DNA of 64,000 bases from Naegleria gruberi (lineage: Eukaryota), in the NCBI GenBank assembly GCA_000004985.1, contig GG738862.1. One strand, written 5' to 3'. The position numbers were made by a program, and so were the translations under genes. Each line of letters begins with the position of its first letter. Positions within the stretch are counted from its first letter, which is position 1. Below the pieces are notes generated by a model. That model saw only the letters and a program-made list of their open reading frames with translations, searched no databases and was not told the origin of the DNA. Of the stretch, positions 9,853-63,431 are shown piece by piece.

Positions 9853-10665
9853 TGGGGGAGACAACCTGCACATTATGCTTATCCCTGGATAACTGCTCGA
9901 TAGACCACCGTCAGCTTGTTCCCGCCAAGTCCTGACTTTGTTATGTGGGGATAAGCATATTGTGCTGGCTTCAGCTACCACTGTCAGCCAATAATGCACA
10001 GTTGAACATTTTTTGACCCATTTTCTTTATTATCTATTGAAATTCTTGTTCAATACTCGCAATTAAAGTTCAATGTAATAATGTCACTTCTGTGTTTGCT
10101 CCATGTTCAACTATTTCAAAGAAGTCTAATCATGAAAAAACAAACAACGACCATAATTCAGTTTTCAAAAAACATCCATCGAGAAAGGTTTTTAAGATTT
10201 GTTCGAATTTCCACTCTTTGGTTTCTTCATACTTACCTTGAAGGACATTTCAGTGATCATGCAGACTGAAATGTGAATCTGGAAACTCTCCTCCTTGCAC
10301 TCAGAGGATGAGTAGCCAGAGTTTGGTCAATAATCAAAGTGGTTGTTGCACTCCTTCTCAATTTTTTCCTGTGAGGATTCATCTGGTATGATTTCTCGCT
10401 CTGTTAACAAATAGAAATTCAATGAAAATATGTGTTGAAGTGGTCTTGCATTCGAATAGTTGCTGCAACGAAGAATCTCCAACAAGTCCAAGTTACCTTG
10501 TATTGGCCTTCACTTGCTGGATTATTTAATACCAACTGAACCCAAATACATGGTGATAGATTTGCTGAAGCTACTGAATAATTCATCAAAATTTCAAAAG
10601 CTCAAGCTGTGAGTCATTTTTTATATCTTAAATAAACGTTGGATTTAAAGTGTTAATTTGAAAAA

Positions 10666-10783
10666 GACTACAGCACCACAGGTTCCCAAGTTGTCTCCAA
10701 CCTCAGTACTGATGTGGCTCGACGATGCTTAACTTCTCAAATCGGACGGGATGAGGTGCATTCATCGTGATATGGCCGTAGCC
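10666..10783 (-). rRNA. 5S ribosomal RNA, copy 1
   Basis: Reverse complement reads GGCTACGGCCATATCACGATGAATGCACCTCATCCCGTCCGATTTGAGAAGTTAAGCATCG…GGTTGGAGACAACTTGGGAACCTGTGGTGCTGTAGTC. The ends pair as helix I, box C (GAAGTTAAGC) is present, and a T5 run follows the 3' end (pol III terminator). Confidence 0.9.
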
Positions 10784-11697: not shown

Positions 11698-13185
11698 ATG
11701 ACTGACAGTTCGTGGCAGATTATTCCTGATGAAATTTTGATCAATATTTTCGAATATTTACATTCGATTGATTATGTCCGTATTGCCCACGTTTCTTCTC
11801 ACTGGAGAAAACTTGCAAAATTATCCTATTGTCATTCGGTGTGGAATTTACAACAATATCACAAGGATTTGAGTAGAACTACTCCATCACTCTGTCAACC
11901 TAAACTAAATAATGATGTTTTATGGTTGTTTTCGAAAGTTTATTTATCAATTGATCCCAATAATGTGAAATTTATTAATGAATTTATCAAGAATTTGTTA
12001 ACTTCTAAAAAATTGAAACATTTAATTGTGGAAAATCCAAGTTTTTTGGAAAGTTCGAATATTTTCAAACAGTTTGATAATGGAGCGACAAGTTGTGAGA
12101 GTCTTACTGCTTTGGAGATTGTTTCTAGTTATGCTATGATTGACTGTATGGATAAATTTCCAAATTTGAAAGTTCTCAAGTTTAGAAATTGTTATGGAGT
12201 AATTGGAATTTCATTGATGAAACATATTCATCAAAGATTGGAGAGTTGTGCTATTGAAAATTCATATTTTGATTCAAAAACGTTTTTCAATGCGATTGAG
12301 AATGGAGTTTCGAATTTAAAAAAGATTAGTTTAGAGTTTATCAAAAAAGAAGATTTAACTGCATTGAGCTTGAGCTCGTTTCCCTATTTGAGAAAATTGA
12401 AAATATCAAAAATTAACCTTCAAATAGCTCACTTATTATGGAATTCGTTTAGTCATCAATTGAAAAAGTTCAATATTACTCTGGCTGATGATGAATATCA
12501 AGTTTTTGATTTTCAAAAAAGAAATGCTCCTCATTTGAAATCATTGCAACTTTGCAACTCAACTTTGGATGAATGTGATATAGAAATGCCTCAATTAGAG
12601 CATTTGGAATTTTATTATGTATACGAATTGCCAGTAATCATTTCCAAATTCGTTGGATTGAAAACTCTAATTATTAGAAACTGTTACGAAATGGATTTTT
12701 CCAATATTGGTCAACTCTTGCAATTACGACACTTGGAAGCAAGTAATGTTGGCGATTTGGAAGCTGTTAGACATATTTCGAAATTGGAAAATATCATTCA
12801 TTTAACAATTTCAGGAATTAATGATGCTGGAAGTGAAATTATTTCTAATGGAAATCTTAGAAACCTGAAATGCTTGGAAATTGATTTTGAAAATCCTGAG
12901 AAATCAGCTTACTATCTCTCACACTCCAATTTAACAAACTTGAGAATTATTCGATTCACTCTCAATGAAGAGGCAAGCAAAATATTCAGTCGAACGAGCT
13001 TGGAATTGAGGACTGTTATTCTAAACGAAATATGTGAAGTTTCACACCTTATCAAGAACTTGCAATGTGACCAAATTGTTGTGTGGACATTAAAACGCCT
13101 CCCCAACTTGGACCAAAATTCCAAATTGGCTATGAAATGCAATAAGAGATTAATATTCACCAATGATTACAAACCATTCCTTTAA
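11698..13185 (+). CDS. F-box / LRR-like protein (495 aa)
   Basis: N-terminal F-box (IPDEILINIFEYLHSIDYVRIAHVSSHWRKLA) followed by Leu-rich repeats. Intact ORF. Confidence 0.75.
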   Translation: MTDSSWQIIPDEILINIFEYLHSIDYVRIAHVSSHWRKLAKLSYCHSVWNLQQYHKDLSRTTPSLCQPKLNNDVLWLFSKVYLSIDPNNVKFINEFIKNLLTSKKLKHLIVENPSFLESSNIFKQFDNGATSCESLTALEIVSSYAMIDCMDKFPNLKVLKFRNCYGVIGISLMKHIHQRLESCAIENSYFDSKTFFNAIENGVSNLKKISLEFIKKEDLTALSLSSFPYLRKLKISKINLQIAHLLWNSFSHQLKKFNITLADDEYQVFDFQKRNAPHLKSLQLCNSTLDECDIEMPQLEHLEFYYVYELPVIISKFVGLKTLIIRNCYEMDFSNIGQLLQLRHLEASNVGDLEAVRHISKLENIIHLTISGINDAGSEIISNGNLRNLKCLEIDFENPEKSAYYLSHSNLTNLRIIRFTLNEEASKIFSRTSLELRTVILNEICEVSHLIKNLQCDQIVVWTLKRLPNLDQNSKLAMKCNKRLIFTNDYKPFL

Positions 13186-19651: not shown

Positions 19652-21125
19652 TTGCGAGATACCAACCAACAACACCCAACCAACCTACACAACCGAATTT
19701 CCTCATCATCCAAAACAATATATTCACTAACAAAGAAAATGGTCGAAAAGAAAGCTGCTAGTCGTAAGAATTCAAACGGAAGCTCCCTCTTCACTGCTGA
19801 AGATGATCAAAAACTTATCGAAGGCTACAGAAAGTATGGTAACAACTGGAAGGACATTTCCAAAGAGTATTTTAATGGTAAATTCAAGACTAACCAATTG
19901 TTCCAACGTTATAAGAGAGTCCTTGTTGCTAAGGACAAGGAAAGTACCTGGTCAAAGAATGAAGACATTGAACTCCTTTCAGTCTATCATCACTTTGAAG
20001 GATCATGGGTTCAAATGAGCAAGAAGTATTATATTGGTATGTATTCAATTAATGTTTCAATTATTTAATGACATTTGATTAGACACAAGAACTGATAACC
20101 AACTTTCAAATAGATGGGCTAGTTTAAAGAAGAGTTGTTGTTTGATTGATACTTTTGCCAAGTTGAAACCTACTGTCAAGAAGGATCTCTACAATTTATA
20201 TAAGAAAGTTAGAAAGGCTGATGGTCCTGATGCTATTAAGAATACAAATTATACCGATATTGTCGAAATTCCAGACGATTCATTCCCAAAGATTTACCTT
20301 GGTGAAGGTAGAAAGGTTCAAAAAGAAGGATCAAAGAAGAGAAAGTCAACCAAGAAATCAACTGAAACAATTGAATCACCAAAGAAGAGAAAGTCAAATA
20401 CTAAGGATGCTTTCATAGTTGAAGAAGAAGAGGAAGAAGATAACTCATCTGTTTCTTCATCTGAAGAAGATAATACTTCTGAAGAAGCTCCACTTCGTGT
20501 TATTCCAACAAGAAGATCTCAACGTGTAAATTATTCCAAGATGCTCAGTGATGAAGAAGAAGAAGAAAAGCAATCATCACCTGAAGATGAAAAGCCTCAT
20601 CTCTCTGCAGATCAAATCCAATGGCTCAAGGCTCAAAAGTGTCCTGCCAAGAGACAATCATCATCAAGCACTGCTCCATTTACTTTTGATCTTGCTTGTG
20701 ATGAACATCTTGAAAACACTGTTACTCAACAACCACAACCAGTCCAACAACCACAACAAACTGTATCTGTACAACCATTGGCCATGCCAACCAAGCAAAT
20801 CCAATACACAGTTGTTGAAAATCATGATTTTAACTTGGACTTTAACGAAGATGAATTCCTTGAAATTGAAAGATTTATTGGTGCTCCATATAGCCACTAC
20901 GAACAAGAAAGAACCATCTCTATTGAAGATATTGTTAATCAAACAAGAAGCATTAAGGAATTTTTCGAGCAAACAAAACCAACTCCAAAGGTTGAAGAAG
21001 AACAAAATCTATTCGACTTTAATATGACAGATTTTGGTGAAGATGGTCTTGACTTGTTTGATTTCTCCAATCCTTCAAGAGCTCCAAAGTCTCCATTGTT
21101 ATTTGAAGATGGTTTGGACTTTTAA
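19652..21125 (+). CDS. Myb/SANT-domain transcription factor with acidic C-terminal region; join(19652..20036,20083..21125), intron 20037..20082 (GTATGT…AG, 46 nt). Alternative start at 19739
   Basis: Two Myb-like repeats (LFTAEDDQKLIEGYRKYGNNWKDISKEY… and WSKNEDIELLSVYHHFEGSWVQMSKKYYI|DTRTDNQLSNRWASLKK). The splice restores the conserved GRT..Q…RW…L pattern across the junction. The C-terminus is acidic with FDF motifs. Confidence 0.7.
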
Positions 21126-33245: not shown

Positions 33246-33415
33246 TTTTTTTGATTAGTTTCGAATTCCACGAAACCATTCCAATAATTTAATAATCCAA
33301 TTTATTATTTGTTTTGTCATCTCGTATTTACCTGGTCTGTAACCAAAACATTTAGATGAAGTAGGTTATTGTCCATTTCTCAACTGATTTAACAAAAAGA
33401 AGTTAATTTGAAAAA

Positions 33416-33533
33416 GACTACAGCACCACAGGTTCCCAAGTTGTCTCCAACCTCAGTACTGATGTGGCTCGACGATGCTTAACTTCTCAAATCGGACGGG
33501 ATGAGGTGCATTCATCGTGATATGGCCGTAGCC
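33416..33533 (-). rRNA. 5S ribosomal RNA, copy 2 (identical to copy 1)
   Basis: Same 118-nt sequence as 10666..10783, with the same 3' flank (T-run, CAAATTAAC). Confidence 0.9.
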
Positions 33534-36700: not shown

Positions 36701-38138
36701 AATATCATCTTTACCTTAACTCTAATTTCTGTAATTAATCCAATGTTTTTAATTGTGGTTGTTCCAATTGGTTTTGCATTTTACATAATTCAAGAATATT
36801 ATAGGACTACATCAAGAGAACTTAGAAGATTGGAATCGATTTCAAAGAGTCCTGTAATGTCACATTTCAATTCTTGTCTGGAAGGCGTCAATACTGTCAA
36901 GGCATCTCTTGTACATTCGAATATTTATGAGGATAGTTTTAACAAGATTGACTTTGCAAATAAGCATACCTTTAACAGATTTATGGTGAACAGATGGTTG
37001 GGTGTTAGAATCCATCTCAGTAAGTATTTTCACATTAACATTATTGCTCATCTTCACAGTTTCTCAATCTGTTTTGTTTTTTACTGCTATCTTTGCTATC
37101 ATTGCCAAACATACTCAAGAAATTAGTAGCCCAGCTTTCCTTGTATTGACCATTTCAAACTCTCTTCAGTTGAGTGATTGTTTCCAATCACTAGTTCGTT
37201 CGTTTGTTGAAGTTGAAAGTAACATGACTTGCGTGGAGAGAATTGTGTACTATGCTCAAAGTATCCCACAAGAAGCTGCCTACGATAAAGAAGGTGATCC
37301 AACCACAAGAGAATGGCCAACTAAGGGACACATTCAATTAGATCAATTGTCGGTAAGATACAGAGATGATTTGGATCCAGTTTTGAAGAATCTCGATTTG
37401 GATATCAAAGCAGGCACCAAAGTTGGTGTTGTAGGAAGGTATGTTTGAATATTTCTAACTTTCAAAATTAATATATAACATGAATATAGAACTGGAAGTG
37501 GAAAGAGTACTTTATTGATTTCTCTATTCAGATTCCTTGAAGCCAATGAAGGTAGCATCTCAATCGATGGTCTAGATATTTCCAATATTGGTTTGAGAAC
37601 TTTACGTAAAGCATTATTAATCATTCCTCAACAACCTGTTCTATTCTCTGGATCTATTCGATACAATTTGGATCCTTTCGATGAATTTGAGGATTATGAA
37701 ATATGGAATGCCCTCGAACGAGTTCATATGAAAGAAAAGATTCAACCACTCCAACTCTCCTTCACTGTTACTGAGAATGGAAGCAATTTTTCAATTGGTG
37801 AAAGACAATTACTCTCCCTTAGTAGATGTATTTTGAGGAAGGCAAATATTATCATCTTTGATGAATCCACTGCCTTTGTAGATCATAATAGTGATGAGTT
37901 GGTTCAGAAGGTTGTTAGGGAGGAATTTAAGGATAGTACAATCATAACCGTTGCTCACAGATTGGACACCATCATTGATTCGGATTGTATTGTATTTATG
38001 AAGGAGGGTGAAATTATAGAAACTGGAAGTCCAAAGGAATTACTCTTAGATGAAAGATCGAATTTCTCCTCTCTTGTGAGGGAAACTGGTAAACAATACT
38101 CTGACCACTTGAAGAACAAAGCTTTCAAGCTTGCTTAA
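33775..38138 (+). CDS. ABCC (MRP-type) ABC transporter, multi-exon. Resolved introns 37020..37059 (40 nt) and 37439..37489 (51 nt); N-terminal exon structure unresolved (frame change near 34680-34760); candidate starts 33775 or 33940
   Basis: TMD1 segment (ILNGIRIVKFYVFEDKM…). NBD1 has Walker A GNTGSGKST, signature LSGGQKHRISLAR and Walker B IVLMDS. TMD2 is present. NBD2 Walker A GVVGRTGSGKST is reconstructed across the GTATGT intron, followed by ABC signature and Walker B (IIIFDEST). Confidence 0.75.
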
Positions 38139-41134: not shown

Positions 41135-42553
41135 TTGACAAGAAAAAATAAGCAAACAAAGCAGATCTGCAAGATTTTGAAAATTAATTTCGGCGGAACT
41201 ATTCATCAAAAAAACATGGAGAAAAAACTCGAGTCTCTCCAACGAGAAGAAATATTTTCAGATGATATTTGTTTTGAAATAATTTCCATGATTGATGATT
41301 CGTGGTTTATTTTGAATAATTGTTCCTTGATTTCAAAACAATTCTTTAATGTGATCAAGGAACGTTCAAAACTTTTTATTGAATTTAAAAAAAAATTTAC
41401 AGAAAAAAGAATTGAACTATTCACAAAGAGTCAATTTATGAATAGTATTGTTAAAGTTAAATTTTCAACAAATTTGTTTGTCTCTATTGAAAATCACAAA
41501 TTCATAAGTGAAATGAAACAATTAACTTCACTTAATATTTCTAACAATCAAATTAATGATGAAACAGCCAAATCAATAATTGAAATGAAACGATTAACAT
41601 CACTTGATATTGGTGGAAATCAAATTGGTGATGAAGGAATCAAATTAATTAGTGAAATGAAACAATTAACATTACTTGATATTAGTGGAAATAGTATTGG
41701 TGATAAAGGAGTCAAACCAATTAGTAAAATGAAACAATTAACATCACTTAATATTTATAACAACGAAATTGGTGTAGCAGGATCCAAATTTATAATTGAA
41801 ATGAAACAATTAACATCACTTGATATAAGCTACAATGAAATTGGTGATGAAGGAGCCAAATCAATAAGTGAATTGAAACAATTAACATCACTTACTGTTA
41901 GTGGAAATCAAATTGGTGATGAAGGAATCAAATTAATTAGTGAAATGAAACAATTAACATTACTTGATATTAGTGGAAATAGTATTGGTGATAAAGGAGT
42001 CAAACCAATTAGTAAAATGAAACAATTAACATCACTTAATATTTATAACAACGAAATTGGTGTAGCAGGATCCAAATTTATAATTGAAATGAAACAATTA
42101 ACATCACTTGATATAAGCTACAATGAAATTGGTGATGAAGGAGCCAAATCAATAAGTGAAATGAAACAATTAACATCACTTACTATTAGTGGAAATCAAA
42201 TTGGTGATGAAGGAATCAAATTAATTAGTGAAATGAAACAATTAACATTACTTGATATTAGTGGAAAATCAGTTGGTGATAAAGGAGTCAAATCAATTAG
42301 TAAAATGAAACAATTAACATCACTTACTATTTATACCAATGAAATTGGTGTAGCAGGAGCCAAATTTATAAGTGAAATGAAACAATTAACATCACTTGAT
42401 ATAAGCTACAATGAAATTGGTGATGAAGGAGCAAAATCAATAAGTGAATTGAAACAATTAACATTACTTGATATTAGTGGAAATGGAATTGGTGATGAAG
42501 GATCCAAATTTATAATTGGAATGAAACAATTAAAATCACTTGATATTCAGTAG
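41135..42553 (+). CDS. F-box-like / RNI-type LRR protein (paralog B, 472 aa; alternative start 41216)
   Basis: N-terminal EIFSDDICFEIISMI motif, then about 16 repeats of a 24-aa LRR (MKQLTSLDISGNQIGDEGAKSISE). Confidence 0.7.
   Translation: MTRKNKQTKQICKILKINFGGTIHQKNMEKKLESLQREEIFSDDICFEIISMIDDSWFILNNCSLISKQFFNVIKERSKLFIEFKKKFTEKRIELFTKSQFMNSIVKVKFSTNLFVSIENHKFISEMKQLTSLNISNNQINDETAKSIIEMKRLTSLDIGGNQIGDEGIKLISEMKQLTLLDISGNSIGDKGVKPISKMKQLTSLNIYNNEIGVAGSKFIIEMKQLTSLDISYNEIGDEGAKSISELKQLTSLTVSGNQIGDEGIKLISEMKQLTLLDISGNSIGDKGVKPISKMKQLTSLNIYNNEIGVAGSKFIIEMKQLTSLDISYNEIGDEGAKSISEMKQLTSLTISGNQIGDEGIKLISEMKQLTLLDISGKSVGDKGVKSISKMKQLTSLTIYTNEIGVAGAKFISEMKQLTSLDISYNEIGDEGAKSISELKQLTLLDISGNGIGDEGSKFIIGMKQLKSLDIQ
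41627..42490 (+). repeat. Higher-order tandem repeat inside the LRR gene: three 288-bp units (4 LRRs each) at 41627..41914, 41915..42202 and 42203..42490. The first two are about 98% identical
   Basis: GGTGATGAAGGAATCAAATTAATTAGTG… recurs at exactly 288-bp spacing, with only a few substitutions between units 1 and 2. The 72-bp sub-period corresponds to one LRR. Confidence 0.8.
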
Positions 42554-42876
42554 TATTATACAGTCAATCCTTTGTTAAGCACTAACATATGGTTCCTTTA
42601 AATTACGATTAGTTAACCTAATATAAATGTAGCAAGTATTTTAACAGTCCAACCTGCATTACAATGGACAGTGTTATTGTAAAAGGAGTGGGATTGAAAC
42701 AAGCAAGGAATTTCATAGATTGGGAGTAACTGGCTGTCAGGAATCAACAGGCAACAGAATTAATCGAAAAGGAAAATGGAATGATAGATTAATGACTTAA
42801 AAATCGATTTGACACTCTATCATCAATCGAGCTATTGTTCCATCTTCCTGGTTGTTACTAACTTCCACCATAAAAA

Positions 42877-44148
42877 TTGCAATCAACTTGCTGCATTGAG
42901 TTCCACTTAAAAAAAATAGGCAGAACAATGTTCCCATTTCACAAACGGAAAACCCAACTGTTGGACGAAACTTCATTGGAAACAGTGGATATTTTGTCTC
43001 TTGTTTTTCAATTTCTCGAGCTGAAAGAATTATTCGCTCTCCAAAAAGTATCACCCTTCTTCTACCGAACCATTGAACATTTGAAATCCTTACTGATCCG
43101 ACCAATATATGAAGTTGGTTTAGTTTCGTCCGATAAGAAACAATTATCGGAATTTCTTCAACTTACTTTAAAATCAGAATTAATTAGTTCAGCCACAAAG
43201 GAAAACCCACAAAAAGTTTCAAGTACTAGATACACTTATTATTCTACAACCGAAATCGACATGACAGATAAAAATGATGGCAATCAGCTCAAAAGTGTGA
43301 AATTTGGAGAGCATCATATGATTCATGCTTTTAACAAGGTTGAAAAGGAGTTTGTCTTTAAGAATGATAGATTTAGAGTATTCTTTTATCCATTGTATTG
43401 TGAAAAGAGTACGAGTTTATCACATGATGATTATCAACGACTGGATGGGTTCATATTTTTGAATCCAAACAGCAAAGATGGATATTCAACAATGCCGAAT
43501 GGATGTAGTTTTTGTGCAACACTCTTGGATTATAATAATTCTTCAGTTGCCAATGAAACAGTACTAATGCCAGTAAGAAATTTCGGATCTTTTAAAGTTG
43601 AGAAAGTGAGTGAAAGATATTCGATAGAACAATCAATTCTCGACTGTATTAATTACATTTCAGAGAACTCAAATCGATCAATTCAATTGAACTCAATAGG
43701 AGATGGCTTAAAATCATGTTTATTAGAAAAAATTTCATTAATCATTAAGGAACCCAATGATGAAATGGTTGCCACTAAAATATCAGATCTATTCAAGAAC
43801 AAATACACACTCAAAGAGCTGATACTCTCAGAGAAAGTGAGATACATGACCAGAAAATTGAATTTCTTCAATTATCCACACAATGTCCAATTCAGTCTTT
43901 TGAAAAGACTTTACACAGCTCATTTGGGAAATGAAAATGTTAAATTCAAAGATGATCTCTATGCCATTCAGGTTATTTTCAATCAGCAATTCAATTCTAG
44001 AAAAAGGGATTCATACGATGACCATTTGGTGGAAATGAAAACTACGCTCTCATTCAATTTAGTATCTCAGGAAATTAAGTTCGAATACAAGAATATTACA
44101 AGAGCAAGTACTATTGGCATTAGTAATAAAAAGTGCATCATTTGTTAG
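42877..44148 (+). CDS. Hypothetical F-box-like protein (423 aa; probable start 42928)
   Basis: N-terminal motif VDILSLVFQFLELKELFALQKVSPFFYRTI resembles an F-box. The remainder has no recognisable family. Confidence 0.55.
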   Translation: MQSTCCIEFHLKKIGRTMFPFHKRKTQLLDETSLETVDILSLVFQFLELKELFALQKVSPFFYRTIEHLKSLLIRPIYEVGLVSSDKKQLSEFLQLTLKSELISSATKENPQKVSSTRYTYYSTTEIDMTDKNDGNQLKSVKFGEHHMIHAFNKVEKEFVFKNDRFRVFFYPLYCEKSTSLSHDDYQRLDGFIFLNPNSKDGYSTMPNGCSFCATLLDYNNSSVANETVLMPVRNFGSFKVEKVSERYSIEQSILDCINYISENSNRSIQLNSIGDGLKSCLLEKISLIIKEPNDEMVATKISDLFKNKYTLKELILSEKVRYMTRKLNFFNYPHNVQFSLLKRLYTAHLGNENVKFKDDLYAIQVIFNQQFNSRKRDSYDDHLVEMKTTLSFNLVSQEIKFEYKNITRASTIGISNKKCIIC

Positions 44149-44363
44149 TCAATTCCAATTAAGAAAATTCTTCTTAGATCGGAGCAAAATATAAATTTTA
44201 ATTTTAATTAATATTTTAAAAAATGTTGTATTAACAACTTCATCCATCTACCAAATCATCATCACGAATAACAAAATAAATCATCAAAAACAGATATTCT
44301 TTACCTTCATGAAAAACACTAAACCATCATCAATCCTTCTAGTATGGGATTAGCATTTAAAAA

Positions 44364-45446
44364 ATGGGCAATAATCAAACCACTTCTCACAGATCCCTTC
44401 CTACCGAGCATGCATCTTTCTCCAATTCTTCTCGCGAATATGCCAATCAATACATAATGATCGCAGGTGGTCCATCAGTAGTAATTTATCAAGGCTTGGT
44501 TGATCAAATAATTTCTATCGAAAATCGAATAGAAAATGCTGCTAATTATGAGAAGGTAAAGAGTGAATGTCTGAAAGGTATTCAGCAACGTTTGGTGAAA
44601 TATTTCCCTGTTCATTTTCATGATACAGTTTCGGAAAAGATAGAAGAACAATTGGTTGACCTGTGGCATAGCCCCAATTTTAAAGAGGAATACTTTGCGA
44701 ATAGATTCCAGGTAGATCCATACTTGGTCTTGCCAACTGTATTTAATAATTTGGAGAGAGGAATCAAATTTAATTTGAAAAGAACTTGCTTGTTCCAACC
44801 AGCAGGTAGACAATATTATTTCACAACATGCTATTCGAAAACAACTGATAATTTTCCACACAGCCGTAATCAAAAGTTGACATTTGAATTATTTGCTAAT
44901 TGTTTTTCTGCTGATACTTGGGCTGATGTAGTTGGAGCATCATTTTCTCTATCTGACTATGATAACAATCAATATTTAGATGAATTTTATCAAGTGTGTA
45001 GAAGATTGTCTGGATTTTCTACATACAGAATGATTTTAATATTTACTCATCTTGATGTTCTCAATGAAAAGATAAAGTTGGGACTAATTAACTATGGAGG
45101 AGATAAAGATATAGAAATTCGAAAAGAATTCAATCATATTCCAAAAGAATGTGCTCTCATCATTGAATATCTCATCAAAGAAGCCAAAAAAAATATAGAA
45201 ATGAATCCAAGCCATGACTTTCCCAATAGGACATTGGAATACCACATTGTAAATACATCAAGTGACAGTGATATGAAAGAATTATTGGATTGTATTTGTA
45301 TTGGAGCAAATTCTAAGAGAAAATGCTTCATATCCTCTAAAATTGAAATGCCACCTTTCTCATATCCTAACACCAGATTCAAGAGCAACATGCACAGAAC
45401 CTCAGAACTAAATCAGTTTTGTGATATTGCAATATTGCTAAATTGA
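44364..45446 (+). CDS. Hypothetical protein with N-myristoylation-type start (MGNNQT); possibly a degenerate Gα-like pseudo-GTPase
   Basis: Begins MGxxxT. Has weak Gα-like remnants (IMIAGGPSVV in place of the P-loop, TTCYSKTTD, MILIFTHLDVLNEKIK) and no intact GKS P-loop. Family assignment is speculative. Confidence 0.5.
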   Translation: MGNNQTTSHRSLPTEHASFSNSSREYANQYIMIAGGPSVVIYQGLVDQIISIENRIENAANYEKVKSECLKGIQQRLVKYFPVHFHDTVSEKIEEQLVDLWHSPNFKEEYFANRFQVDPYLVLPTVFNNLERGIKFNLKRTCLFQPAGRQYYFTTCYSKTTDNFPHSRNQKLTFELFANCFSADTWADVVGASFSLSDYDNNQYLDEFYQVCRRLSGFSTYRMILIFTHLDVLNEKIKLGLINYGGDKDIEIRKEFNHIPKECALIIEYLIKEAKKNIEMNPSHDFPNRTLEYHIVNTSSDSDMKELLDCICIGANSKRKCFISSKIEMPPFSYPNTRFKSNMHRTSELNQFCDIAILLN

Positions 45447-45492
45447 CTTTAGTTTTCCATTTCCTAAAGGTCAGAACTCTTCAAAATAAAAA

Positions 45493-46533
45493 ATGAGCCA
45501 ACAAGAAAAGGAGGAAACAGTGGCACCAACCAAAGAAGAATCACCACAGCCAGTTTTTCCCGATGATGTGATATTTGAAATTATTTCCTTCAATAATGAT
45601 TTTAAATTTACAGTAAGGAGTTGTGCGTTGGTTTCTTCACAGTGGTTTAATGTCATTTTGGAAAGATCAAAACTTTCACTCACACACAACAGTAAAAAGA
45701 AAATTAATGGCCAATTTTTACAGCGTATTGTAGCTGTCAATGGGATGAAAAAATGTGATTGTATTCCATTTCTTGATCAAGTATTTGATCTCAAGAACTT
45801 GACTACCCTTGACGTTAATTGTATGAAAATTAAAGATGAAGGAGTAAAGATAATAAGTGAAATGAAACAGTTGACCAATCTTAATGTAGGCAGCAGTGGT
45901 ATTAGTGTTGAGGGAGTCAAATATATCAGCGGCATGAATCAATTAACTAATCTCAATATAAGCCGCAATAATATACGAGCAGAAGGAGCCCGTTACGTTA
46001 GTGAAATGAAACTATTAACCAATCTTAATATTTATTTAAACGGTATTAGAGCAGAAGGTACCAAATACATCAGTGAAATGAAAGAATTGACTTGTCTTAA
46101 TATAATGAGTAATGCAATTCACGATAAAGGCGCAGAACACCTTCGTCAAATGCCTAAATTGAATACACTCAATATTAATTCAAATAGTATCAGTGTAGAA
46201 GGAGCCAAATTTATTAGTGAAATACAGTCATTAACTAATCTTGATATTGGTTTCAATACTATTGGAGATGACGGTGTCAAATTTATAAGCAAAATGGAAA
46301 AACTAACAAAACTTTATACAATGTACATTAATATTGGAGAAAAAGGAGCCAAACACATTAGTGAAATGGAACAATTAACTAGTCTCAATATTAATTCGAA
46401 TAATGTAGGAACAGAAGGAGCAAAGTACTTATGTGAAATGAAACATTTAACATATATGAATATTTGCAACAACAATGTAGACAAACAATCCCAATTTATC
46501 AAAGATGCTACAGTCTGTTTCATCCAATGCTGA
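45493..46533 (+). CDS. F-box-like / RNI-type LRR protein (paralog C, 346 aa)
   Basis: N-terminal FPDDVIFEIISF motif and about 10 LRRs of the MKQLTNLNI.SN.I..EGAKYISE type. More diverged at DNA level than paralog B. Confidence 0.7.
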   Translation: MSQQEKEETVAPTKEESPQPVFPDDVIFEIISFNNDFKFTVRSCALVSSQWFNVILERSKLSLTHNSKKKINGQFLQRIVAVNGMKKCDCIPFLDQVFDLKNLTTLDVNCMKIKDEGVKIISEMKQLTNLNVGSSGISVEGVKYISGMNQLTNLNISRNNIRAEGARYVSEMKLLTNLNIYLNGIRAEGTKYISEMKELTCLNIMSNAIHDKGAEHLRQMPKLNTLNINSNSISVEGAKFISEIQSLTNLDIGFNTIGDDGVKFISKMEKLTKLYTMYINIGEKGAKHISEMEQLTSLNINSNNVGTEGAKYLCEMKHLTYMNICNNNVDKQSQFIKDATVCFIQC

Positions 46534-51698: not shown

Positions 51699-52999
51699 AT
51701 GATCAACAGTAGTTGTTGGTTGGTAGCTGTTTTGTTGATGTTGTGCCTCGTCTCAACTGCAACATGTGCTATTGCCTTGGCTGGTAATAAGAGAGCTGCT
51801 CCATCAACTGCTATGTGTACTCGTTACACTTCTGCATCATTGGTTGGAGATGTTGATTTGAGTAAGGTCACTCCAAAGCCTGTTAACTGTCCTTTGGGAT
51901 GTAATTTGTATACTGTTTCTGGCTCTGCATTGGGTTATAATGGTCCACTTGGGGCTTTGGGGTATGTTGTGTAGCTTTTATGATTTGTTTTACTATTTAT
52001 CAAACATTTTCATTATCATGATCAATCAGTCCTTTGGGTCCTTTGGGTCCTGTTTCCACTGGTACCCCTTACAATGTTCCTGATAATTTTGTTTGGTATG
52101 GAAATAACTTTAATACTTACCTTAAGGAAATGAATGCATGTGATAAGTTATTGAGCCATCCACAAAATCCACTCTCTTCTGCTGGCCCAATGGGTGATGC
52201 TTTCTTTGATGTCATGCCAAAGATTAACGATTTCACTAAACACATGATGGGTAAGTTGTTAAATAGTATTTGAATGCTAATAGGAATATTTCAATACGAA
52301 ATGTTGATGAAACCATTATTATATATTTACAAATTTTACACATTAAAAGGTATGGGAGTTTGGACTGTTTTGGGACCATTGGGACCTTTGGGCCCACTTG
52401 GTGCTTTGGGACCATTGGGTCCAGTTGGTTGCCACATGTTGGACGTTGATAAGGATGGTCAATTCGTCAGTAAGAAGGGTGAAGTTTTGAGAACTACCTC
52501 AGTTGTTTATAACTCGTCCCTCACTGTTAACTGGCCTCTTTTCGAAAGATATAAGAGTAGAGAATTCGTTGACAAATTGTCCAAGAAGGGTTTGCTCGAC
52601 ACTTCTTTCATGGTTTCTGCTAGTGTTGATATTACTGGTCATGCCTATGACATGGTTGTTACTGAACCTCAATACGTCACTGTCACTGTTATCCCAACTC
52701 TCTGGGCTAAGAACTTCTTCTTGGAAGCTTTCATTAACGGTAAATCTGTTATGAAGTCTGAAAAGCTCTTATTCACTCCTTGGTTCCAAGTCCACATTTC
52801 TGGAGCTGATTTGCAAAATGCTGGTCCAGGTGGAGCTAAATTGAAGGTTGTCATTAAGACTGATCCTCTCGATTGTGGAATGATGTCTGTCTTTGGATGT
52901 ACTATGGATTACACAATGCATGTTGTTGGTTCAACTTCATTCATGATGAGAAAGCCACACCTCAGTTACACTGGTCCACATATTAAGCAATGTGAATAA
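51699..52999 (+). CDS. Secreted protein with two short collagen-like Gly-X-Y tracts; join(51699..51961,52030..52250,52350..52999), introns 51962..52029 (GTATGT, 68 nt) and 52251..52349 (GTAAGT, 99 nt)
   Basis: Signal peptide MINSSCWLVAVLLMLCLVSTATCA. After splicing, exon 1/2 gives GPLGALGPLGPLGPV and exon 3 gives GPLGPLGPLGALGPLGPVG, with Gly every third residue. A roughly 190-aa C-terminal globular domain follows. Splice phases are consistent. Confidence 0.65.
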
Positions 53000-56402: not shown

Positions 56403-56520
56403 AGACTACAGCACCACAGGTTCCCAAGTTGTCTCCAACCTCAGTACTGATGTAGCTCGACGATGCTTAACTTCTCAAATCGGACGGGATGAGGTGCATT
56501 CATCGTGATATGGCCGTAGC
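56403..56520 (-). rRNA. 5S ribosomal RNA, copy 3 (1 substitution relative to copies 1 and 2)
   Basis: Same 118-nt sequence, with GATGTAGCTCGAC in place of GATGTGGCTCGAC. The upstream TTCAAAATGTTAAACT element is conserved. Confidence 0.9.
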
Positions 56521-56744
56521 CATTCATTACTTCAAAATGTTAAACTTCAATCTATCATCAAACGAAGTTCTGAATAACAAGATTTTCGATGAAATCACTT
56601 GATTCATCTTTTGATATTTGTAACAAATTATATTAACTAATAATTTACATAATTGTTTGCCTTAACTCCCAAATGGACTTTGCTTTACAATTAGCCATTA
56701 AAAAAACTCCGACAGATGTCCTCTTAAAATAAAAATAAAAATAT

Positions 56745-58539
56745 TTGAATTTAAAAAAAATGAACAAACAAATACTGGGCCTTGCTCTCACGCTCTTGCT
56801 CTGTATTTCTTGTAGCGTATTTGCTTTGGACGCAACCGTTTACTATCAAAATGGTAAATATGTTGTTAAAAACGGATATGATTTGCAATCTGGTATTGCC
56901 GCAGCACATTATGATGATAGTTTTGAAGCTAAAGGATGGGATGTTCTCTCTATCGAAACTAATCACTTGACCAAGGATGATATGCAAAGTTATGGTGCTG
57001 GTTATTTGGAAGGTGTATTGACTAGAAAGAGAATTTATAATCACTATGTCAATATGCACACTTATTCATGGGCCAGTACTCCTGATAAGAAAATGCCACA
57101 ATATGTGAGAGATTTCTTTGAATCTCAACGTGCTTGGGTCAGAGATTCATCTGCCAAGTATGCCAACGATCCTTTCTGGCAACAAATCAAGACCGTTTAC
57201 TTGCAAATGGAAGGTCTCGTTCAAGGTTACAATGATGCTACTACTGATGCTTCCGAAAAAATTGATTATGCTAGCATGCAAGTTATGAGCTCTTTTGGTG
57301 ACATTTTCGATATTCTCAATGTCAAGAAGGATTTCAGACCAAACTTTAACAAGATGACTCCTGCTCAAGTTATTCAATTCGCTCAAGACAATGGTCACTG
57401 TTCTGCCTTGTTCAAGGTTACTCCAGATTTCAGTAATATCTACTTTGGACACACATCTTGGTTTACGTTTAGGTAGAGTTTCGTTTGTTTTTGACATTTT
57501 TTGTTATCTAACCATGTGCATTTTGTTAATATTTTACTGTTTATGTCACTTTTCACTTTTTAATTGAATTTTCACACATTCAGTGCTATGACGTAAGTTT
57601 CCTATTGCTGTTTTCTAACCATTAATCTCACGTTAAATTTTCAGTCGTATCTACAAGACTTACACTTTCAACTTCAACAGCAGATTGGTTGCTTCACCAA
57701 AGGTTACTTTCTCAAGTTACCCAGCTAATCTTGCTTCTAATGATGATTTTTACATTACTCAAAGTGGATTGGTTGTTATTGAAACATCTAACAATATTTT
57801 CAATACTTCTCTCTATGATTTGGTTAAGCCACAATCATTGCTCTGTTGGCAAAGAGTTATTTTGGCTAACAGACTTGCTGATGATGCTCCTTCTTGGAAT
57901 GATATCTTCTCTGAATATAACTCTGGTACTTACAATAACCAATTCATGGTTTTGGATACTAAGAAATTCGTTCCAGGTCAACCACTTGCCAAGAACTTGT
58001 TCTGGGTTGTTGAACAAATTCCAGGTAAGGTCGTTGGTGGTGACCAAACTGAAGTTCTTAGCTATGGTTATTGGCCAAGTTACAATGTTCCATTCTATCC
58101 AGAAGTTTTCACCATTTCTGGATATCCTGAAATTTTGAAGAAACCAAATGCTTCTGATATGTTGTCATACGAAACTTGTGTCAGAGCTAACATCTTCAGA
58201 AGAGATCAATATAAGGTCAACTCAATTGATGGAATGAAGAACATACTTAGATATAACAATTGGAAGTATGATCCACTTTCTCTTGGACAACCTGGATACG
58301 CAATTGCTTCTCGTAACGATTTGTCTCCAACTGCTACTGATGCTACAAGAAGCTGCAGTGGTGGTTATGATACTAAGGTTTCCTCAATTCTCGACATTAA
58401 CACTGTCCATATTATCAATGGTCCAACCAGTGTTGATCAACCAGTCTTTGCTTGGAATGGTCAATGCCCTGCCAAGTTCAGCCATGTTGGTTTGAAGCAA
58501 TCTTTCAAATATGATTGGATGACTGTTAAATGGAATTAA
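56745..58539 (+). CDS. Phospholipase B-like (Ntn-hydrolase, PLBD family) secreted protein; join(56745..57472,57584..57592,57645..58539) with a 9-nt micro-exon; introns 57473..57583 and 57593..57644
   Basis: Signal peptide. GHCSALFKV contains the N-terminal nucleophile Cys motif. Splicing through the micro-exon TGCTATGAC yields …TSWFTF-SAM-TRIYKTY…, restoring the family motif S/A-A-M-x-R-I/V-Y-K. Unspliced reading hits a stop. Confidence 0.75.
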
Positions 58540-58617
58540 ATTTTTGATAATTAATTATGATTACAATCTCTTTATTGGTGGTGTAACCTTGAAAAAGATT
58601 GAAAAAATCAGCAACAC

Positions 58618-61600
58618 ATGACTGCAAACATCAACAAGCTTCAGTGCTGGCGGTCTTACTTGTTGATTCTTCTCTCTGTTATCCTTCTCGTTGGTGATGC
58701 ATCACCATTATCTTCATCAGCCCACTCAACATATGTTCGCTATCAGTTTGAAACTCTTGCCGGAAACCTTCAACCAGTTTTTTCTCTGTCATTCAAACAA
58801 ATTCAACAATCCAAAGTCAATCCTGATATTCTCTTCATAGTGTCTGCAAGTGATTCTCTTTACAAGTACAATCAAACAAGTGGAGAAAGGAACCTACTGG
58901 TCGGATGTGATGTGTTATCCTATAACTTGTGCATTAAAGAATCAATGGTAACCAACATTTCCCATCTGGCAACATCTGTTTCTATCTACATTACTGGATT
59001 TCATGTGATGGTTTCTTCTAATGAACAAGTAATTTATATTAGCACCGACCATCAATTGTTTCGAATGGAAAATAAGAATATTACACTCCTTTCGGCAATG
59101 TGGTCGACTAGTGATGAAAATCCAAACTTGGATGGAATGCATATTTCGGATAGTTGGTTTAGGTTTTTAAAATCAGTTGTTGTTGATGAAGATGAGAAGA
59201 CTTTATATCTTGCAGATGGACAAGTTATTAGAAAGTTGGATGTGGAAACTGGTATTTTAAAGTCCATCACAACAACAGGAGATGACCCAGTATCTAAGTT
59301 TGATGGACCTGCCAATCAGACTGTTCTTAAACTGCCACAAAAACTACTCCTTCATAATGGATTTCTTTATGGAAATGATGCATTTTCACTTTTTAAAATT
59401 AATATTCAAAGTGGATGGTTGACAGTAATAACTGGCACGATCAATTATATATTAGGTGTTAATTTTCCAGCTCCAAAATCAGGTGATAATGCTAAAAATT
59501 CAACACTTTTATCAATTCGTGGATTTCACATTATGGAGGATGATTCCATTCTAATAATTTCTGGAAATACTTTTTATCAGATCGATCAAAAAAGTGGATT
59601 ACTAACTATACTTTACAATTTTGAAGAAGCTATCTTTTTGGCAACACCCAATTTGGTATTTTCATTACAAAAGGTTTACAAATTAAATAGATTGAATTGG
59701 TCTATGGAAACAATTATAGATTCACATATTGGGGCCATTACGGATGGTTCAATAGCAAAGAATAGAAAATTCTTTGACATTTCAGCACTGACAATGAACG
59801 AAACCACTGGGGATTTACTATTTTCTGATTCATTGTCAAATTACAATCTTTACAAAGTTGATAAGGATGGAAGGTTTTTCACAGTGAATTTACAAATGTC
59901 AAACGTATCTTGTTGGAATTCCTCTATCAGAACTGATAGCTCTTTAACATTCAATCCAGTCTCTTTCCAATTGAGAAACTCTACTTTATATGTTGCCAAT
60001 TCTGGAATGCACAGTTCAATCCAAAAATTTGATCTATCTCAACAAGGATCAAGTTGCTTCTATTCAGGATCAATTTCAAGTGATAGACTTTTGCAACAAG
60101 GGAGTGGACTATCCATGTTGGTTAATAACCCTACTGGATTATATTGTAATATCAATTCTGACGAGATATTTGTTGCCGACACTGAAAACCACAGAATTCT
60201 CAAATATATTTCACATAATCTAGTTCAAGTAATTGCAGGTACTGGAAAGCAAGGTTTTTCAGGAGATGGTGGCTTAGCCATTCATGCTCAACTGAATAGA
60301 CCTCACTCAATTTCCTACGATCGTTCCAATAGAGATCTTTACATTGCAGGTATGTCATTCATTTTCATTATTTTAACATTCATAAAGATTCTGGAAATCA
60401 CAGAATTCGAAAGATTTCTTCTGATGGAACTATTTCTACAATTTTAGGAACTGGCTCGGGTGGATTTAATGGAGATGGTCTCCCTCCATTACAAACGCAA
60501 ATTAATTTCCCTAAAGGTGTTACTTACTCACCCTTTCTGGGAATTGCAATTTCTGATACCTATAACCATAGAGTGAGATTATTTAGAGAAGGAAATGTGA
60601 GCACAATATTGGGAACTGGAACATCTGGAATGAAAGTAGTGGAGGATAATCCAACAGAGACAGAGATTATTTCACCTTTTGGTCTGGTTTGGGCTGAATC
60701 AACTTCATCCCTTTACATAGCTGGTAAGTTTCGAATTTTAGTCGAACATTGACAAATTGTTTCAGATCAATTCAATCACAGAATATTACATCTCCAATAT
60801 CTATATGGTAGTGTAGCAATCATTGCAGGAACCAATTTACCTGGATATAATGGAGATGGCATGAAAGCTAACTTAGCCAAACTATTTCTTCCAAGTTCTG
60901 TAGTTTTGGCTCCTGACAATACAATTCTAATTGCAGACACTTACAATAATTTAATAAGGAAAATTAGTAATGGAATAATTTCTTCATTTGAAACAAAAAT
61001 TGGTCTTGGTCAATCCTATCAAATCAAACAACCGATTGGGTTGTGTTTAACATTATCTGGACCTTTTGTGACAACTGAAAATGCCGTTACCTCATTAAGT
61101 TCAGGCTATACCTCCAACATAATTGGAGGAAATGGAGATGGAATGAATGTTTATTATGCAGATGTTAATCCAACAAGAATGATACTCTCTCCATTTGGAA
61201 ATGAAGGATCAATGATATTTTCAGAATCGAATTCGAATAGAATAAGATATGTCGACAGTAATGGAATCATTTCAACCATTGTTGGTTGTGGAGTATTTGG
61301 ATATATGGGTGATAAATATCCTTCTCAATTTGCCTTTCTTGCTTCACCTACTGGTATAGCACTGAATCCAATAACAAATGATTTAATTTTCTGCGATACC
61401 TCCAATAATCGTATTAGAATAGCTTCTATAAATGAATTAAACGTAGTTGATACGATTGCTGGAACAGGAAATAGCGCATATGATTCAGAAGTATCAGATC
61501 CCTTACTCTCACCACTCAATAAGCCAAGAGTGGTTGCCACATTTAGCAATGGTGACATTGTCATTGGAGACACTTTAAATAATCTATTCAAGATGATTTC

Positions 61601-63431
61601 AAGGAGAGACGGAAAAATTAGAGCCATTGGTATGGGATTTGCAACTGACATGTACGTCACTAAGGATAACATTATCATCTTTTCATCAAGGGAAGAACTT
61701 ATCAAGATGGTTCCTTATTGTGATCTTGGCTATCAATTAGTTGAGAAAAATACCGACTGCATTCCAGTATGTTTTGGATTGACTGGAAATTTGACATGTA
61801 CTAGAAATGGAGAATGCACCTTACCAAATACTTGTAAATGCTCACCTGATTTCACTGGAAAAGCGTGCGAAATTCCAATTTGTTTTGGTTTACCATCCAA
61901 TTCTTCTAATGTTTGTAATAATGGAAATGGAACCTGTGTGTCACCAAATAAGTGCGTTTGTAATGATGGGTTTTATGGAGATCAGTGTCAATATCCTCTT
62001 TGTTTCTCATCATTAATAGAGGAATCATGTGGTGGAATTAATAGAGGAAGGTGTGTCCATAGAAATAAGTGTGAATGTAAGGATAATTTCACAGGTAGAC
62101 AATGTGAATATAGATCTTGTCTTGGAAAGAGTGAAGTTGACCAAAAAGTTTGCAATGGAAATGGTAGGTGTGGATCTGCAGGAAAATGCGAATGTAATTT
62201 GGGTTATTCTGGAGCAGATTGTTCTGATTTGACTCAAGTCTATGCAGTGAGCATCACAGCTGCTGTCATCTTATTAATTTTGATTATTCTAATTCTTGTT
62301 TCTTCTATTTTAGGATGGTTTTTATATAAGAGAAACAGGAGAGATCGAAAGATTATTGAAACAGAACTCTCTCTTGATGAAAGACTCTTGGCAACTACAG
62401 ATCTTGAGCTCTCCCAATTCAGCACAAGTGTTGGTTCAGGATCTCAATCATCCTCAGATGATTCTCCTTCATTTGTCATTCCACTTCACAAGCTAGGAAT
62501 GGATAAGCCAATTCGTAGATTGGGAGAAGGAGGCATGGGAAGCGTATTCATGACCAAATATAATGGAATGATTGTTGCTGTCAAGGTTTTTGATTTGAAT
62601 AATTTCAATATTTCAGAGGAAGATTTTAGAAATGAAGCCATTTTACTAAGTAGAATCAGACACCCAAATATTATAACTTTCTATGGAGTTTCTTCATCTC
62701 CTACGAAACGTTTTATAGTAATGGAATGTTTGGATCAGAGCTTGGAAAAGTTTATTTCTAAATTGGAAACTAAACTAATCAATCTTTCATTAGACCAAAA
62801 ATTGAAAATGTTATTGAATATTGCTAATGGAATTGAATATCTACATACAATGCAACCTAGAAAGATTATTCACCGTGACTTGAAACCTCAAAATATCCTT
62901 CTAGATTCGAATGGAAATTGTAAAGTTTGCGATTTTGGATTAAGCAAATCCATTTCACAAGGAACTATCTCAACAATCACTAATCAATTAGGTACTTTTT
63001 ATTATATGAGCCCAGAAATGTTTGATATTGAAGCTGTCGATCCTACTTACGCTACTGCAATTGACATTTACAGTTTCAGTATTATTGGATGGCAATTATT
63101 ATTCGAAAGCAAAGATCCTTACGTTTACAATAGTCAAGAAGTAGCTAGAAAGTTGAGCTCCAAACTACTCGAACATGTAACCTCCTACCAATTGACCAAG
63201 TTAATTTGTGAAAACAATCACAGACCTGCCATTCCATTCAATTCTCTCAAATCATGTCGTGAATGGTGTTTGGAATTTTTACCCACAACTGAACAAGAAA
63301 ATTATTCAATAGTATTCAAGTTATGCCAACTCATCAAACAATGTTGGCAAGGAAATCCAAAACTTCGACCAAGCATTGAACAAATTGTTGAACAATTACA
63401 AACCTTAGAACAAGAATTTAACAAGATTTAA
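58618..63431 (+). CDS. Receptor-type protein kinase: signal peptide, large extracellular region with NHL-type repeats, 5 tenascin/laminin-type EGF repeats, TM helix and cytoplasmic TKL-like kinase; join(58618..60349,60388..60723,60766..63431), introns of 38 and 42 nt
   Basis: Signal peptide MTANINKLQCWRSYLLILLSVILLVG. NHL-like repeats (…DTENHRILKY…, DSGNHRIRKI…, DTYNHRVRLF…, DQFNHRILHL…). EGF repeats CxCxxGFxGxxC ×5. TM AVSITAAVILLILIILILV. Kinase motifs GEGGMGSV, VAVK, HRDLKPQN, DFG and SPE. Both introns begin GTATGT or GTAAGT and keep the NHL repeat in frame. Confidence 0.75.

Follow-up and report, generated by a model that had tools for sequence, protein, structure and literature searches.

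Does the segment 58618-63431 of the 64,000-nucleotide (nt) stretch of contig GG738862.1 analysed here (the window) hold a single gene that unites an NHL beta-propeller, EGF modules and a protein kinase in one receptor, or do these parts belong to separate genes? Without splicing, the plus strand of this segment contains an open reading frame (ORF) at 58618-60447, a 59-residue frame at 60573-60752 that lies inside a longer stop-free stretch, and an ORF in another frame that ends at 63431. With high confidence, we regard the locus as one three-exon nuclear gene that encodes a type I receptor Ser/Thr kinase of the TKL group with an NHL/EGF ectodomain, and for this receptor a ligand-driven activation is proposed. 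The gene model is as follows; here and below, slashes in sequence motifs mark splice junctions.

58618-63431, plus strand: receptor-kinase coding sequence (CDS) in three exons, with the ATG at 58618 and the stop codon at 63429-63431
58618-60349, plus strand: exon 1, an ATG-initiated ORF; residues 1-577 and the first base of codon 578
60350-60387, plus strand: intron 1, 38 nt, GTATGT...TTAAC...AAAG, phase 1, at A577/D578 (YIA/DSGNHRIR)
60388-60723, plus strand: exon 2, 336 nt or 112 codons, residues 578-689, symmetric (phase 1-1)
60724-60765, plus strand: intron 2, 42 nt, GTAAGT...TTGAC...TTTCAG, phase 1, at A689/D690 (YIA/DQFNHRIL)
60766-63431, plus strand: exon 3, which encodes residues 690-1577 and ends with the stop codon; it shares 57% identity with the colinear stretch of the relative L001 introduced below

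Removal of 60350-60387 (GTATGTCATTCATTTTCATTATTTTAACATTCATAAAG) and 60724-60765 (GTAAGTTTCGAATTTTAGTCGAACATTGACAAATTGTTTCAG) and subsequent translation yielded a spliced CDS of 4734 nt, which corresponds to 1577 codons with a single terminal stop. Both introns have GT..AG borders and lie in phase 1, where they split the Asp codon (G/AT) of the NHL motif YIA/D..NHRI. Exon 2 comprises exactly two NHL blades, as judged by the matches of a blade hidden Markov model (HMM), which was built from the clear repeats, to residues 578-633 and 634-688. If intron 1 is kept, translation ends at 60447. Only splicing creates the best stretch of the Pfam NHL match (559-586) and the TEN_NHL match (512-757), since these run across the junctions 577/578 and 689/690. 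The location of both introns inside NHL repeats, which had been proposed in a first-pass annotation of this DNA, is thus borne out.

Comparative support for the gene model came from two contigs of the same metagenome sample, ENA ERZ929261 k127_175875 (L001; 5180 nt, 34% GC) and ERZ929261 k127_452592 (L003). L001 carries a colinear full-length relative that is 52% identical; after removal of four GT..AG introns (45, 42, 46 and 60 nt), it encodes a 1560-residue protein of the same architecture. At the site of intron 1, L001 contains no intron and reads LYIADSGNHRVR uninterrupted. At the site of intron 2, it has an intron of its own (46 nt, GT..AG), which matches exactly in both position and phase. 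Its additional introns comprise two in the NHL region, one at YIA/D of another blade and one inside a blade (YSG/GD), and one in the kinase. A 98-nt version of intron 1 was considered and rejected, since it would cut away a conserved part of a blade that aligns colinearly with L001. L003 is 99.3% identical to positions 56479-61691 of the window and has the same gene structure; the assembly is therefore independently confirmed. The comparison of L003 with the window yielded 22 coding single-nucleotide polymorphisms (SNPs) in about 3000 coding nt, distributed over exons 1 and 3. Fourteen of these are synonymous (all at the third position) and eight are nonsynonymous; in exon 1, 12 of 19 are synonymous third-position changes. 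Three further SNPs fall into the 42 nt of intron 2, which corresponds to about ten times the density of the exons, and none into intron 1. Judged by these comparisons, from which we infer splicing in vivo, 58618-63431 is one real gene with the three exons and the two introns that the first-pass annotation had assigned to it.

The same annotation had considered the two introns to be at the lower size limit of spliceosomal introns. A mechanical survey of the window for other short GT[AT][AT]GT..AG candidates that join long ORFs identified five, of 33, 40, 46, 51 and 68 nt.

20037-20082, plus strand: candidate intron, 46 nt
37020-37059, plus strand: candidate intron, 40 nt
37439-37489, plus strand: candidate intron, 51 nt
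51962-52029, plus strand: candidate intron, 68 nt
52251-52283, plus strand: candidate intron, 33 nt

These candidates have GTAAGT or GTATGT donors, and most contain a TAAC-, TGAC- or TAAT-like motif just before the AG; two of the five are located within an ABC-transporter gene. Since sizes of 33-68 nt appear usual in the window, introns of 38 and 42 nt are typical here and appear to be of ordinary length for this genome. Furthermore, far shorter introns occur in other protists, and the argument from a lower size limit therefore carries no weight.

The domain layout of the encoded protein was deduced from Pfam and from hydropathy. The signal peptide and the transmembrane helix were assigned from the hydropathy plot (Kyte-Doolittle window).

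58618-58701, plus strand: predicted signal peptide, about residues 1-28, with a hydrophobic core at 13-28; the N-terminus of L001 is likewise hydrophobic
58702-60006, plus strand: N-terminal ectodomain, residues 29-463, predicted degenerate NHL-type blades
60007-61712, plus strand: canonical NHL beta-propeller region, residues 464-1005, which contains both introns
61713-62225, plus strand: two-Cys linker and four six-Cys EGF modules, according to Cys positions and Pfam
62244-62324, plus strand: predicted transmembrane helix, residues 1183-1209, Kyte-Doolittle maximum 3.3, followed by the basic sequence KRNRRDRK
62325-62510, plus strand: juxtamembrane segment, residues 1210-1271, in part Ser-rich and marked by a conserved LD..LL motif
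62511-63395, plus strand: protein kinase domain, residues 1272-1566, TKL-like, Pfam Pkinase 6.4e-48

The 1577-residue protein contains only two hydrophobic segments in the hydropathy scan, a first one at about 13-28 and a strong one at 1183-1209. Fifteen N-x-S/T sequons are found within residues 1-1195, nearly all of them in the ectodomain. The N-terminal signal, the putative membrane helix with the adjacent KRNRRDRK, and the sequons of the ectodomain fit a type I single-pass topology.

Membership was assigned to the Pfam families NHL (PF01436), teneurin-type NHL (PF25021) and EGF-like (PF07974, PF23106). All bit scores exceed the curated cutoffs: NHL reached 105.7 bits (cutoff 20; E-value 4.8e-31), TEN_NHL 86.1 (27.1; 3e-24), EGF_2 57.3 (22.1; 1.9e-15), EGF_Teneurin 46.4 (24.3; 4.2e-12) and Pkinase 163.9 (31.7; 6.4e-48 for residues 1272-1566), and PK_Tyr_Ser-Thr matched with an E-value of 2.1e-43. 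A domain scan of this kind had been named beforehand as the check that might overturn the NHL and EGF assignments; it upheld them. Likewise, Pfam and hydropathy reproduce the previously proposed order of signal peptide, ectodomain, NHL region, EGF modules, transmembrane helix and kinase. The number of EGF modules had to be corrected. Instead of five tenascin-type repeats, the map of Cys residues gives four modules with six Cys each (1025-1057, 1062-1097, 1102-1136 and 1141-1175), which are preceded by a two-Cys loop (C1008 and C1021). A Pfam match to EGF_TEN, located at residues 1033-1181, is sub-threshold.

Canonical NHL units, as located by the blade HMM, begin at residues 521, 578, 634, 690, 843 and 900; the units that precede or separate them are degenerate. 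The N-terminal part had been described as a large ectodomain in front of the NHL region. Residues 30-499 were searched exhaustively by means of phmmer against 1.84 billion representative proteins. This search yielded one near-full-length relative, P0362 (36% identity), besides P0361, which is the same-species ORF of L003. Otherwise, the region matches hundreds of proteins, each through several stretches, and the top ones are NHL/TEN_NHL repeat arrays. Because of these multi-stretch matches, the N-terminal ectodomain is best described as degenerate NHL-type repeats that do not form a separate fold. Thus, the large ectodomain is present, but by this sequence criterion its approximately 460 residues are themselves degenerate NHL-type repeats and not a distinct module.

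An AlphaFold2 model was computed for residues 29-1180. Over approximately 508-998, the predicted local distance difference test (pLDDT) score is about 85-97 and about ten four-stranded blades are seen. The N-terminal 460 residues have pLDDT values below 50-70, with groups of beta-strands visible, and the EGF stalk is of low confidence; for these two parts, the model was discarded as not usable. A Foldseek search of the NHL region against the PDB identified the bacterial teneurin-like protein 9ifo (3.1e-24), SOQ1, NHLRC2, the propeller-EGF arrays of LRP/megalin, teneurin-2, and Pizza6, a design derived from PknD (TM-score 0.80, normalised to the target). At the level of sequence, the best phmmer matches of the NHL/EGF part in the PDB were 9ifo/9pt5 (1.6e-62); teneurin-2 reached 2.6e-10 and PknD 1e-4. 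The four-stranded blades of the model and the top Foldseek matches concur in predicting an NHL beta-propeller fold for the canonical region. The ectodomain probably contains about 17-18 blades in total, a number that was estimated from motif periodicity and DSSP strands and is consistent with three six-bladed propellers.

The kinase domain had been annotated as TKL-like with all catalytic motifs, and the comparison with known structures agrees with this assignment. The top 23 distinct PDB sequences all belong to the TKL group, among them CTR1 (110 bits), LysM-RLK, CERK1, ZAK/MLT, Roco4, TAK1, SOBIR1 and DLK; the first match outside this group is CDK1 with 89 bits. The scores for the Raf-like CTR1 and the RLK/Pelle-type LysM-RLK are nearly equal. 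In the alignment with CTR1, the motifs GEGGMG, VAVK, the alpha-C Glu (in FRNEA), HRDLKPQN, DFG, SPE, DIYSF and CW..P..RPS are in register, and an insertion of about 35-40 residues is located between subdomains IX and XI. Five family members were aligned, and the catalytic residues do not vary among them. The same is true for L87, D88, L91 and L92 (alignment numbering) of the juxtamembrane LD..LL motif. According to these alignments, the kinase is TKL-like and has a complete set of catalytic motifs, and the intact motifs predict that it is catalytically competent. HRDLKPQN is an indicator of Ser/Thr specificity and suggests that the kinase would phosphorylate Ser and Thr residues.

Related proteins were sought with two queries. 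A search with the whole protein was dominated by bacterial NHL arrays; a query with the C-terminal 578 residues revealed a family. Among the best 120 matches listed for the latter, the closest relatives (38-55% identity) are all metagenome ORFs, and no close kinase orthologue bears the name of an organism. P0121 is a kinase fragment with 55% identity and P0122 is part of L001. P0123 and P0124 (38-39%) likewise combine NHL blades, the Cys loop, one EGF module, a transmembrane helix and a kinase. A pattern scan of JGI metagenomes with the family alignment found no new members, only generic kinases with about 30% identity. Among named eukaryotes, the sole match of the ectodomain in the whole-protein search was C9374_012056 of Naegleria lovaniensis (P0008; 1.5e-114, 31% identity over 30% of the query). 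No paralogue of the receptor kinase was found elsewhere in the window. Our reading of these searches is that the protein would belong to a small family that is represented by metagenome sequences only. Sample ERZ929261 holds both the 99.3% strain variant (L003) and the 52% relative (L001); therefore, the organism, or two close relatives, live in that environment.

The identity to L001 rises from the outside to the inside of the cell. It amounts to 35% for the N-terminal blades, which are the fastest-evolving part, 54% for the NHL region, 54% for the EGF region, in which every Cys is kept, 63% for the juxtamembrane segment and 72% for the kinase, which is the most conserved part. This gradient fits a diversifying sensor that might be joined to a conserved signalling module.

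Four introns of the two genes share the position at G/AT of the Asp codon and the phase in the motif YIA/D..NHRI of four different blades. These are the introns at 60349/60388 and 60723/60766 of the window and those at 1661/1707 and 2255/2302 of L001. This shared phase-1 position in the blade and the fact that exon 2 equals two blades point to a duplication of blades together with their intron and a subsequent differential loss of introns. The pattern suggests that the repeat array may have grown by duplication of intron-flanked blade units.

Based on these findings, the following mode of action is proposed. The signal peptide would place about 1150 residues outside the cell, where some 17-18 NHL-type blades would form, probably, three six-bladed propellers. 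The membrane-distal blades, which are the most divergent ones, presumably bind a ligand or a partner. The small Cys loop and the four EGF modules of teneurin/tenascin type would form a rigid stalk under the propellers, a single helix would span the membrane, and the conserved juxtamembrane segment would lead to the kinase. Binding of the ligand or partner would alter the oligomerisation of the receptor. As a consequence of this change, the Ser/Thr-rich activation loop (DFGLSKSISQGTISTITNQLGTFYYMSPE) would be phosphorylated in trans, and downstream signalling would follow.

Several points weigh against this interpretation. The support for splicing is comparative and consists of the continuity of domains, L001 and L003. 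The signal peptide and the transmembrane helix were called from hydropathy. The layout with three propellers is weakened by the AlphaFold2 model, whose confidence is low in the N-terminal 460 residues and in the EGF stalk. L001, which stems from the same sample ERZ929261 as L003, may be a paralogue within one genome or else the orthologue from a co-occurring relative. The margin of the TKL group over other kinase groups is modest and is measured by PDB bit scores. Finally, both the ligand and the activation induced by it are postulated.

The alternative that survives best accepts the spliced gene and assigns a different role to its product. The protein would then act mainly in adhesion or recognition, in a teneurin-like manner and either homophilic or prey-binding, and the kinase would be constitutive or serve as a scaffold. 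NHL propellers and EGF stalks are typical of adhesion proteins, the nearest solved relatives of the NHL region are a bacterial teneurin-like protein and the teneurins, and P0008 from Naegleria combines NHL blades, the Cys loop and an EGF module without a kinase. However, the invariance of the catalytic residues across the family and the position of the kinase as the most conserved part (72%) point to selection on catalysis, and adhesion does not exclude signalling. A mainly adhesive role is unlikely.

Still less can be said for two or three separate genes or a pseudogene. The locus would then encode a secreted NHL protein of 609 residues (58618-60447) and an independent membrane kinase of 856 residues (60861-63431), and the presumed introns would be intergenic or frameshifted sequence. 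The mechanical ORF list does give separate ORFs, prokaryote-style gene callers divide the metagenome copies in the same way, and the splicing of the full model is based on the comparison of sequences. However, the 856-residue ORF would start partway through an NHL blade, with no signal peptide, and exon 2 (60388-60723) with its two perfect NHL blades would be orphaned. Moreover, the Pfam domains are colinear across both junctions, L001 is uninterrupted at the site of intron 1, the SNPs follow a pattern of purifying selection in exons 1 and 3, and other family members share the overall architecture. A division into separate genes is thus very improbable. The least credible alternative, a regulated retention of intron 1 that yields a soluble 609-residue decoy ectodomain beside the full-length receptor, can draw on a read-through that stays in frame for 32 codons up to the stop at 60447 and would leave a signal-peptide-bearing N-terminal propeller fragment, but it is purely hypothetical, and since an intron is missing at this site in L001, the tail added by read-through lacks conservation. 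The single spliced receptor kinase with a ligand-responsive ectodomain is consequently retained.

The gene is embedded in a gene-dense window with a GC content of about 34%. The following features surround it.

7991-8797, 11698-13185 and 41135-46533, plus strand: ORFs with F-box and LRR_6-type leucine-rich repeats, some of them adjacent
10665-10783, 33415-33533 and 56403-56521, minus strand: 5S rRNA genes, Rfam 103-105 bits
25000-29859, plus strand: ORF of 1619 residues with at least seven cofilin/ADF domains (Pfam 3.1e-86, seven stretches)
56745-58539, plus strand: phospholipase-B-like gene in two ORF pieces, with a gap of about 165 nt between the exons

The locus is compact: Only 78 nt separate the stop codon of the phospholipase-B-like gene from the receptor-kinase ATG downstream of it, and about 220 nt separate the first phospholipase-B piece from a 5S rRNA gene located upstream. 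The best organism-named match of the phospholipase-B-like neighbour is from Naegleria gruberi (50%), and matches from Monosiga and vertebrates reach 45-46%. The three 5S rRNA genes are scattered among protein genes and lie 22.75 and 22.99 kb apart, which is almost regular; beyond the 5S body, the copies have no more than about 40 nt of flank in common. The 1619-residue ORF represents an unusually long tandem array of ADF-homology domains, and the assembly index contained no record of this exact protein. The number of F-box/leucine-rich-repeat ORFs suggests a local expansion of this family in the window. A divergent G-alpha-like ORF (44364-45446) sits among them.

Which of the known systems does the receptor resemble most? 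The kinase PknD from M. tuberculosis is a receptor Ser/Thr kinase with a six-bladed NHL propeller as the sensor (PMC3322341; PDB 1rwi/1rwl). It shares with the window gene the extracellular NHL propeller, the single transmembrane helix and the intracellular Hanks-type kinase. In contrast to the window gene, however, the kinase of PknD is N-terminal, so that the order is reversed, and PknD has one propeller and no EGF module; the window gene has EGF modules, spliceosomal introns and, probably, several propellers. Its kinase fits the eukaryotic TKL group better than bacterial Ser/Thr kinases, and the sequence match to PknD is weak (1e-4). Membership in the PknD family was rejected for the reversed order, the EGF modules with probably several propellers and the different kinase group.

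A second resemblance is to the teneurins and their bacterial teneurin-like relatives (PMC13018210; PDB 9ifo and 6fb3). The NHL propeller of the window gene finds its best match here in both sequence and fold, and its EGF modules match teneurin-type Pfam models. Teneurins are type II proteins in which EGF modules near the N-terminal transmembrane helix are followed by TTR, FN-plug, NHL, YD shell, ABD and Tox-GHH (PMC6428715), whereas the protein encoded in the window is of predicted type I topology, has the order NHL then EGF and carries a kinase. No YD/Rhs, TTR/FN-plug, ABD or Tox-GHH family was detected by Pfam (E<=0.1) in the 1577 residues. Due to the predicted type I topology and the missing YD shell, the protein was not classified as a teneurin.

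Two further systems resemble the ectodomain. P0008 from N. lovaniensis is a single-pass membrane protein with NHL blades, a loop of the form C-x2-G/W..C-[IL]P-C (here the slash separates alternative residues) and a CFG-type EGF module. It differs in that it has no kinase, contains a GAIN-like membrane-proximal region (its UniRef name is GAIN-B domain-containing) and ends in a very short cytoplasmic tail. Receptors of the LRP/LDLR type have tandem six-bladed propellers and EGF modules in a type I ectodomain, in agreement with the fold matches to LRP4, LRP6 and megalin. However, their propellers are of the YWTD and not the NHL type, each is followed by an EGF module of its own, and a kinase is absent.

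The closest counterparts in overall organisation are the TKL receptor kinases of protists that have lineage-specific ectodomains, of which Dictyostelium has nine (Goldberg et al. 2006, PMC1420674). The GDT/DRK proteins of Dictyostelium share with the window gene a signal peptide, a lineage-specific ectodomain, one transmembrane helix and a C-terminal TKL-like kinase (PMC1420674). The combination of NHL and EGF is not among the Dictyostelium ectodomains described, which contain the gdt domain, the drk domain or TIG (PMC1420674), and literature searches for proteins of protists or Naegleria that unite NHL, EGF and kinase domains found nothing relevant. The first-pass annotation had called the architecture non-standard. 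It is non-standard in a weak sense only, as ectodomains specific to a lineage are routine among the TKL receptor kinases of protists (PMC1420674). The domain combination is thus unreported yet unsurprising: It is a fresh architecture within the protist TKL receptor kinases, and the protein is neither a teneurin nor a PknD homologue.

A more far-reaching scenario is put forward tentatively. A protist lineage, unsampled and possibly heterolobosean-like, may have independently joined a teneurin-like ectodomain, with tandem NHL propellers on an EGF stalk, to a TKL kinase, giving rise to a small and fast-diversifying family with at least four members, so far known from metagenomes only, whose repeat array would have grown by duplication of intron-flanked blades. 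The receptor would then be the first eukaryotic counterpart of the PknD-type kinases with an NHL sensor.

The gene adds a well-supported case to the view that single-celled eukaryotes repeatedly shuffle extracellular modules onto TKL kinases. Its intron pattern would represent a small and tidy case in which repeats expanded and introns were then lost, and current views are not overturned. Elsewhere, the pairing of NHL and EGF seen in its ectodomain is known in teneurins and the NHL sensor in bacterial PknD, and the gene thereby offers a natural comparison of NHL propellers as sensors across bacteria, protists and animals.

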